Of a stretch of 64,000 nt of DNA, positions 3,959 through 4,181 are shown piece by piece. The stretch's first letter is position 1. Each line of letters begins with the position of its first letter. Both the position numbers and the translations under genes were made by a program. Source of the DNA: a virus; IMG/VR virus record IMGVR_UViG_3300027741_002766, positions 1 through 64,000 of that record; one strand, 5' to 3'. Under the pieces are notes generated by a model. That model made no database searches. It was not told the DNA's origin and worked only from the letters and a program-made list of their open reading frames with translations.

Positions 3959-3997
3959 ATTGATAACGCATAAATAAACCTATACAATAAGCACAAG

Positions 3998-4120
3998 ATG
4001 AAACATTATTCAAATTATCTACAGACACTAGATCTAGGCACTTGCCTGGCCTTGTGGTCTACGACCGAGAACAATGGCAGTGAACCAGATAACAACAGGG
4101 TCCAGGGAGACAGAGTATAG
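3998..4120 (+). CDS. putative 40-aa attenuator leader peptide (MKHYSNYLQTLDLGTCLALWSTTENNGSEPDNNRVQGDRV)
   Basis: ORF whose last codons contain CAGGGTCC, complementary to the 5' arm of the downstream terminator. Confidence 0.65.
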   Translation: MKHYSNYLQTLDLGTCLALWSTTENNGSEPDNNRVQGDRV

Positions 4121-4147
4121 TTCAACAACATACTCAAACTTCAAAGG

Positions 4148-4181
4148 ACCCTGGATTAAAAACCCAGGGTTTTTTGTTTTT
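4148..4181 (+). terminator. intrinsic terminator of the putative attenuator
   Basis: ACCCTGG-N9-CCAGGGT followed by TTTTTGTTTTT. Confidence 0.85.

Follow-up and report, generated by a model that had tools for sequence, protein, structure and literature searches.

A conserved leader-ORF cassette at the head of a phage tRNA island: a candidate translation-sensitive transcription attenuator

Organization of the locus

The stretch of DNA analysed here, referred to as the window, comprises the first 64 kb of a 108.7-kb viral contig from IMG/VR that is rated ~30% complete. Because its relatives are 286–364 kb in size, the source is judged from sequence to be a giant freshwater phage. A compact cassette lies at the entrance of its tRNA island. 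The features of the cassette and of the region behind it are as follows.

3960–3988, + strand: leader promoter, sigma70-like (−35 TTGATA at 3960–3965, 17-nt spacer, −10 TACAAT at 3983–3988; 10/12 matches)
3998–4120, + strand: leader ORF of 40 codons (ATG at 3998, TAG at 4118–4120)
4096–4153, + strand: antiterminator hairpin (outer helix 4096–4103/4146–4153, middle helix 4106–4109/4139–4142, inner helix 4113–4122/4127–4135)
4148–4181, + strand: intrinsic terminator (stem 4148–4154/4164–4170, 9-nt loop, T6GT5 tract at 4171–4181)
4182–4186 and 4193–4240, + strand: AGGAG and a 15-codon ORF, right behind the U tract
4267–4295, + strand: second sigma70-like promoter (TTGACC-17-TACAAT)
4598–7244, + strand: tRNA island (Glu, Asp, Trp, Tyr, Cys, Met, Thr, Ser and Gly) with structured non-coding stretches interspersed

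The 3′ end of the leader ORF overlaps the antiterminator, and its stop codon (4118–4120) sits in the upper part of the hairpin. The sequence CAGGGTCC at 4096–4103 is the exact complement of GGACCCTG at 4146–4153, and the arm common to antiterminator and terminator spans 4146–4154. The automated terminator scan skipped the element at 4148–4181 since its loop limit is 8 and the actual loop measures 9 nt. A preliminary description of this DNA had reported the 40-codon ORF, a strong terminator with a U tract, the 8-nt complementarity and a sigma70 promoter at 4267; when the window sequence was re-read, these and all its other coordinates and sequence facts proved correct.

The cassette is conserved in three phage clades

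With the upstream phosphoesterase gene as the query, 80 related viral loci were obtained, three of which carry the cassette. A DNA pattern within the hairpin retrieved 11 metagenome copies (L085–L095). Hairpin invariance among these copies is partly by construction, because the search pattern sits inside the hairpin, and they are unusable for an argument on hairpin conservation. A pattern taken from the ORF core retrieved eight viral loci that form a third, more divergent clade (clade C). Clades A and B were recovered via the neighbouring gene and clade C via the ORF-core pattern; since neither query contains the hairpin, the finds in clades A, B and C are unbiased with respect to it.

The cassette homologues total 17 unique sequences in three clades. 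A protein search for the leader peptide gave only two further matches, near-identical ones, and no new clade emerged when the viral collection was scanned with further patterns. In near and distant BLAST searches against deposited phages, only a tRNA matched. All 17 homologues share one build: a promoter, an apparently leaderless ORF of 40–47 codons, a stop codon in the top of the hairpin, and an arm common to hairpin and terminator.

The cassette stands at the head of a tRNA island in 16 of the 17 informative loci. The architecture put forward in the preliminary description, in which a leader ORF and two mutually exclusive structures, antiterminator and terminator, precede tRNA genes, is thus kept across the three clades. 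The exception is L088, in which no tRNA genes lie behind the cassette and a radical-SAM-like gene with its own promoter is found instead. Among the 80 phosphoesterase-linked loci, a tRNA array is present in 3/3 with the cassette versus 3/77 without it.

A host-type promoter and a predicted leaderless start

The leader promoter is found in all three clades in the form TTGACA-17-TAYAAT, with the spacer also kept. In the window the AUG of the leader ORF is placed 9 nt past the −10 element, and the distance is 7–9 nt in all clades despite different intervening letters. No Shine-Dalgarno sequence precedes the window ORF. Since the promoter puts the AUG 0–3 nt from the predicted transcription start, the prediction is a leaderless or nearly leaderless mRNA. 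Other sigma70-like promoters in the same 13-kb region have ~25-nt leaders and clear Shine-Dalgarno sequences where they serve protein genes; the remaining ones lie directly ahead of tRNAs and the tmRNA.

The preliminary description had also read a TAAATA element as a late-type motif, a reading that does not hold. TAAATA (3971–3976) lies inside the spacer of the leader promoter, where the window version of the late motif is CATAAATA, and TATAAATA occurs only twice in the 108.7-kb contig. A T4-type late promoter was rejected on these grounds.

The leader ORF evolves as a coding sequence

The leader frame is open in 17/17 homologues. Its indels (9, 6 and 6 nt, and others) are all in frame, and the two additional database peptides contribute one more in-frame deletion. 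Synonymous changes are in excess, with dN/dS mostly 0.1–0.6 within clades A and B and 0.36–0.8 in comparisons with clade C. By these sequence comparisons the leader ORF evolves as a coding sequence under purifying selection, and it is predicted to be translated.

The peptide contains three conserved blocks: the N-terminus, a core of G-T-C-x-A-L-W, and a C-terminal G-D-R-V. The last of these, directly before the stop, is invariant, and the Trp-containing core is located ~20 residues upstream of it. No Pfam or PHROG match was found for the peptide. The stop codon occupies the same site in the upper part of the hairpin in 17/17 homologues. This pattern indicates that the peptide sequence itself is under selection, which a leader that merely samples codons would not need. 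At the nucleotide level, the first 23 nt of the leader are invariant in the clade A and B homologues other than the window, and clade C differs there.

Predicted competition of antiterminator and terminator for a common arm

The complementarity between the leader end and the terminator exceeds chance: when the 100 nt upstream are shuffled with dinucleotides preserved, a perfect 8-mer complement to the 5′ side of the terminator arises in 1.1% of the shuffles. Folding of the whole RNA has a z-score of −3.8, and that of its 3′ part −4.4. The minimum-energy fold of 3995–4182 is the antiterminator and not the terminator, and it contains both the middle and the inner helix, in agreement with the inner helix that the preliminary description had seen as backing the alternative fold.

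Folding of the homologues gave a similar picture. When the RNA is extended up to the 3′ arm of the terminator, which is the decision point, the antiterminator is the minimum-energy fold in 16/17, by 2–13 kcal/mol. When a ribosome footprint is masked on the stop codon, the terminator forms in 17/17 foldings. Folding of the whole leader places the two states 0.1–4.3 kcal/mol apart, so that the RNA is bistable. Both states contain the middle and inner helices, which all 17 homologues retain; in these models it is the 8-bp outer helix that competes with the terminator stem. The predicted energetics are compatible with a switch selected by the ribosome.

The terminator stem, of 7–8 bp and G+C-rich and followed by the U tract, occurs in five letter variants whose changes are matched on both sides, and the RNAalifold consensus contains five stem pairs with compensatory change. 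The outer 8-bp antiterminator helix has no strict covariation; the 6-bp core, GGGUCC/GGACCC, does not vary, and coding constraint acts on the 5′ arm as well. A covariation count on clades A and B is uninformative because the pairs are invariant. The conserved ORF-stop/antiterminator geometry with covariation to which the preliminary description had looked was therefore borne out in part: the geometry is kept in 17/17 and the terminator shows compensatory changes, whereas strict covariation is missing from the outer helix.

Applied to the full alignment, RNAalifold picks the terminator state. The MAFFT alignment shifts clade C by one column in the common arm, and the outer helix was judged by folds of the individual sequences. 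The 5′ arm of the clade C antiterminator differs in its flanking letters, with two codons changed at the protein level, and it pairs with its own terminator arm via a one-base bulge; this pairing is stronger than that of the other clades. Chimeras in which arms were swapped in silico revealed no reciprocal co-adaptation, as the clade C arm fits every terminator better. The mutual exclusivity of antiterminator and terminator is accordingly argued from conservation and modelled energy and not from strict covariation.

A 10-bp pairing of 4046–4055 with 4095–4105 is present in the window and a few close relatives, and absent from L035, clade B and clade C. A trp-like 1:2 protector was rejected as a family feature since this pairing is not conserved, and neither a conserved 1:2 protector nor a pause hairpin was found across the homologues. 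The prediction for untranslated RNA is hence read-through, in contrast to trp. Rfam covariance models gave no match at E up to 1 in 3900–4300 or in the clade C locus. In L100 and L112 the terminator stem differs and the U tract is weaker.

Genes behind the terminator and the tRNA island

The next ORF begins 2–10 nt past the U tract. In the window and clade A, a strong AGGAG and the 15-codon ORF follow 2 nt past the U tract, and the pooled pN/pS of this ORF is 0.20 (8 homologues), a synonymous CGA/AGA change included. In clade B (L028:4898–5053) a 51-codon ORF with an omega of 0.24–0.38 lies behind the terminator. In clade C the next element is conserved and non-coding. Because the coding ORFs start directly past the U tract and no promoter fits between, read-through is required; from its position, the 15-codon ORF must be transcribed by read-through only. 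A weak promoter-like element is embedded in the 15-codon ORF of some relatives and is defective in the window.

Several smaller observations concern this junction. The 51-aa clade B product is basic and probably helical and has no Pfam or PHROG match. In some relatives a tRNA-Ser starts ~6 nt past the stop of the 15-codon ORF. A conserved non-coding element of ~100–200 nt follows the cassette at L111:4880–5100, at L028:5053–5260 and, on the minus strand, at ~2280–2400 of L088; it contains the motifs AACGAGG and AAACGGGCGG, has no Rfam match and is absent from the window. In L100 and L112 a Cys-rich ORF, possibly a homing-type endonuclease, separates the leader terminator from the tRNA island.

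The second promoter of the window is located 86 nt past the terminator and is predicted from its sequence to serve an ncRNA/tRNA-Glu module independently of the leader. In clade B this module is placed further inside the array, behind the first tRNAs. It lies only 86 nt past the terminator in the window because the window lacks the tRNAs that come first in the longer arrays. The module, from the 4267 promoter to tRNA-Glu, is conserved in clades A and B, and its structured non-coding stretch in the window (4354–4597, + strand) has no Rfam match.

Scans of most clade B and C loci found no sigma70-like site of at least 9/12 between the terminator and the first tRNAs. The leader promoter is thus the only recognisable one before the first tRNA in most of these loci, and the window adds the promoter at 4267; the scans covered sigma70-like sites, and phage-specific promoters would escape them. 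Within the island of the window, 7080–7169 (+ strand) is called as a tRNA-Ser with the unusual anticodon ACT.

Codon content of the leader

The preliminary description had viewed the leader as a sensor of tRNA depletion that samples almost all amino acids and would induce phage tRNAs when host anticodon nucleases such as PrrC, VapC or PARIS cut tRNAs. Its count of 18 amino-acid types is correct, as is the statement that no run of one residue is present, but 18 distinct amino acids in 40 residues are ordinary under the phage's own composition (P = 0.15). Of the codons it had singled out as unusual, CTA (13%) and AGG (3%) are indeed uncommon in this phage, whereas AGA (27% of Arg codons) and GGA (21% of Gly codons) are common. 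The hairpin, in which the AGG, AGA and GGA codons of the leader fall, moreover constrains them.

The idea that the leader codons mirror the tRNA array was rejected for this family. Codons cognate to the array make up 14/40 of the window leader against a background of 0.28 (P = 0.19), without enrichment, and the leaders of three relatives show none either. The window array has only ~10 anticodons, yet the leader differs little from that of relatives with at least 23 tRNAs. The codon content therefore lends no support to a depletion sensor. The proposal keeps some appeal as a special case of attenuation, in which slow decoding within codons 1–28 would favour the antiterminator, and phage tRNAs are known to counter host anticodon-nuclease defences (PMC11464382). 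A broad sensor of tRNA depletion is on balance considered unlikely.

A proposed model of translation-sensitive attenuation

The cassette, placed where the tRNA/ncRNA island begins, is best read as a leader-ORF transcription attenuator that is sensitive to translation; we assign this reading a probability of roughly 0.55. In such an attenuator, the strong host-type promoter at 3960–3988 would produce an RNA whose first codon is at most 3 nt from the 5′ end, and the 40-codon leader ORF would be translated. The last eight leader codons would form the 5′ half of the long hairpin (4096–4153), the 3′ arm of which would double as the 5′ arm of the terminator (4148–4181). With no ribosome nearby, the long hairpin would form first and would be the more stable structure, so that the terminator would be blocked and polymerase would continue through the 15-codon ORF to the ncRNAs and tRNAs. 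A ribosome that occupies the stop codon or any of the final ~11 codons as polymerase meets the U tract would hold the hairpin open, and the terminator would then fold and stop transcription. Because a ribosome near the leader end would open the hairpin in this way, read-through should rise when leader translation lags behind transcription, be it through slow initiation, slow decoding or few ribosomes. Read-through into the tRNA genes would thus probably depend on how well ribosomes keep pace.

The in silico support for the attenuator comes from the presence and conservation of its parts, from selection on the ORF as coding sequence, from the energies of the competing folds and from a location before tRNA genes. 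We infer that the position of the ribosome selects the fold, in which direction read-through responds and what physiological signal, if any, is read. Several observations count against the model. The peptide sequence is kept, as would suit a functional small protein but is uncommon among pure leaders, and it contains no regulatory codon run; a conserved 1:2 protector or pause hairpin is also lacking. The array of the window has its own promoter at 4267, and one cassette, that of L088, has no tRNA genes behind it. The outer helix has an invariant core and no strict covariation, the consensus of the full alignment is the terminator state, and the chimeras are not co-adapted.

The main rival to the attenuator is a stand-alone small-protein gene, with a promoter, a 40-aa product and a leaky terminator, in which the hairpin would serve as a 3′ stabiliser or an RNase III-type processing site and nothing would be sensed. 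We regard this as possible, with odds clearly below even. It accounts well for the purifying selection on the peptide with its conserved N-terminus, G-T-C-x-A-L-W core and C-terminus, for a self-contained unit with its own promoter and terminator, and for the separate promoter that serves the array in the window; the L088 cassette without tRNA genes would also be natural. Phage RNase III sites, such as those used in the processing of T7 early RNA, are of a size like that of the ~22-bp hairpin with its internal loops. There is little reason, however, for a plain terminator to retain a competitor that wins on naked RNA, and to do so across three clades with different letters. A small-protein gene also leaves unexplained the coding ORFs directly past the U tract, which need read-through, the first tRNAs of clades B and C, which have no other recognisable promoter, and the strong association of the cassette with the head of tRNA islands.

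The conserved peptide could alternatively act on its own ribosome, in a switch of the TnaC/SecM kind in which the nascent chain stalls at or near the stop in response to a ligand or state and thereby fixes the choice of fold. The protein-level conservation, the invariant G-D-R-V with the Trp core ~20 residues upstream, and the fixed position of the stop within the hairpin would suit such a switch. The RNA helices formed by the C-terminal codons account for them equally well, however; no similarity to known arrest peptide families emerged from the Pfam and PHROG searches, and there is no candidate ligand, which makes a nascent-peptide switch quite improbable. A non-coding small RNA of ~180 nt (3995–4178) with an incidental open frame is less probable still. 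It would be in line with a promoter and a terminator that bracket a compact, strongly folded RNA (z = −3.8), with the absence of a Shine-Dalgarno sequence, and with the 23 invariant nucleotides at the start of the non-window clade A and B homologues, a stretch in which clade C departs from them; but a frame open in 17/17, indels that are all multiples of three, a synonymous excess and a dN/dS well below 1 argue for coding.

A broader version of the attenuator model is offered tentatively, as a conjecture that may well fail: the cassette would be a general gauge of translation capacity that sets transcription of the whole tRNA/ncRNA island in this giant freshwater phage family. Ribosomes that fall behind polymerase for any reason, including tRNA cleavage, would let the antiterminator win, and more tRNAs would be made. 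Were this gauge real, leader-peptide attenuation would operate on tRNA genes themselves and with an inverted default (untranslated = on). Why phages carry tRNA arrays and how these are expressed is an active question; codon supply and evasion of defences that cut tRNAs are among the proposed reasons. Should the switch operate in the way its anatomy suggests, these phages would measure translation performance directly and adjust their tRNA supply, and the cassette would be a compact (~220 nt), portable sensor of transcription-translation coupling.

Comparison with known attenuators and tRNA operons

The phage cassette shares with the trpL, hisL, leuL, thrL and pheL attenuators a short leader ORF, an intrinsic terminator and an antiterminator that has a strand in common with the terminator. 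As in these systems, the leader ORF ends inside the switch, so the position of the ribosome can select the fold, a step that is predicted for the phage. The differences are considerable. The cassette precedes tRNA/ncRNA genes instead of biosynthetic genes, and its leader contains no codon run for one amino acid. The phage family has no conserved 1:2 protector or pause hairpin, and its untranslated RNA is predicted to read through and not to terminate. The phage mRNA is predicted to be leaderless, the peptide itself is conserved, and no Rfam leader family matches. The cassette thus lacks two defining features of the trp/his class, namely the regulatory codons and the 1:2 protector.

In E. coli pyrBI and pyrE, a ribosome that closely follows polymerase on a leader of ~40 codons prevents formation of the terminator hairpin, and tight coupling leads to read-through. 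The phage cassette resembles these operons in that the outcome would be set by the ribosome-polymerase distance over a leader of ~40 codons and not by one amino acid. It differs in sign, as a close ribosome is predicted to allow the terminator in the phage, and in having an explicit antiterminator.

Leaderless leader peptides have been predicted to function in attenuation in Deinococcus deserti (PMC4007540). There, too, the leader ORF is placed at the transcription start without a Shine-Dalgarno sequence, and control of a downstream terminator is proposed. Unlike the phage leader, the Deinococcus leaders, which are also predictions, are rich in the cognate amino acid and lie before aminoacyl-tRNA synthetase or biosynthesis genes (PMC4007540).

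A full-text literature search found no leader-peptide attenuator for phage tRNA genes and no tRNA array under a translated leader with a terminator switch. The nearest published case is the trn operon of Anabaena sp. PCC 7120, whose long array of tRNA genes is induced when translation is under stress (PMC8421152, PMC10272220). Both systems would follow the same proposed physiological logic, in which an accessory tRNA array is raised when translation is impaired. The Anabaena operon is controlled at its promoter, by the ribbon-helix-helix repressor TrcR acting on direct repeats, and the TrcR work makes no mention of a leader ORF, a terminator or attenuation (PMC8421152, PMC10272220).

Other features of the region

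The window contains a cluster of ten strong sigma70-like promoters between 600 and 13000 (+ strand), several of which abut tRNAs, ncRNAs or the tmRNA. From its promoters, this cluster looks like an early region read by the host polymerase. The tmRNA, at 8950–9310 (+ strand), is of the phage two-piece (permuted) type, with scores of 127.5 bits for RF04321 and 107.5 bits for RF01850, and it has a near-consensus sigma70-like promoter at 8964–8992.
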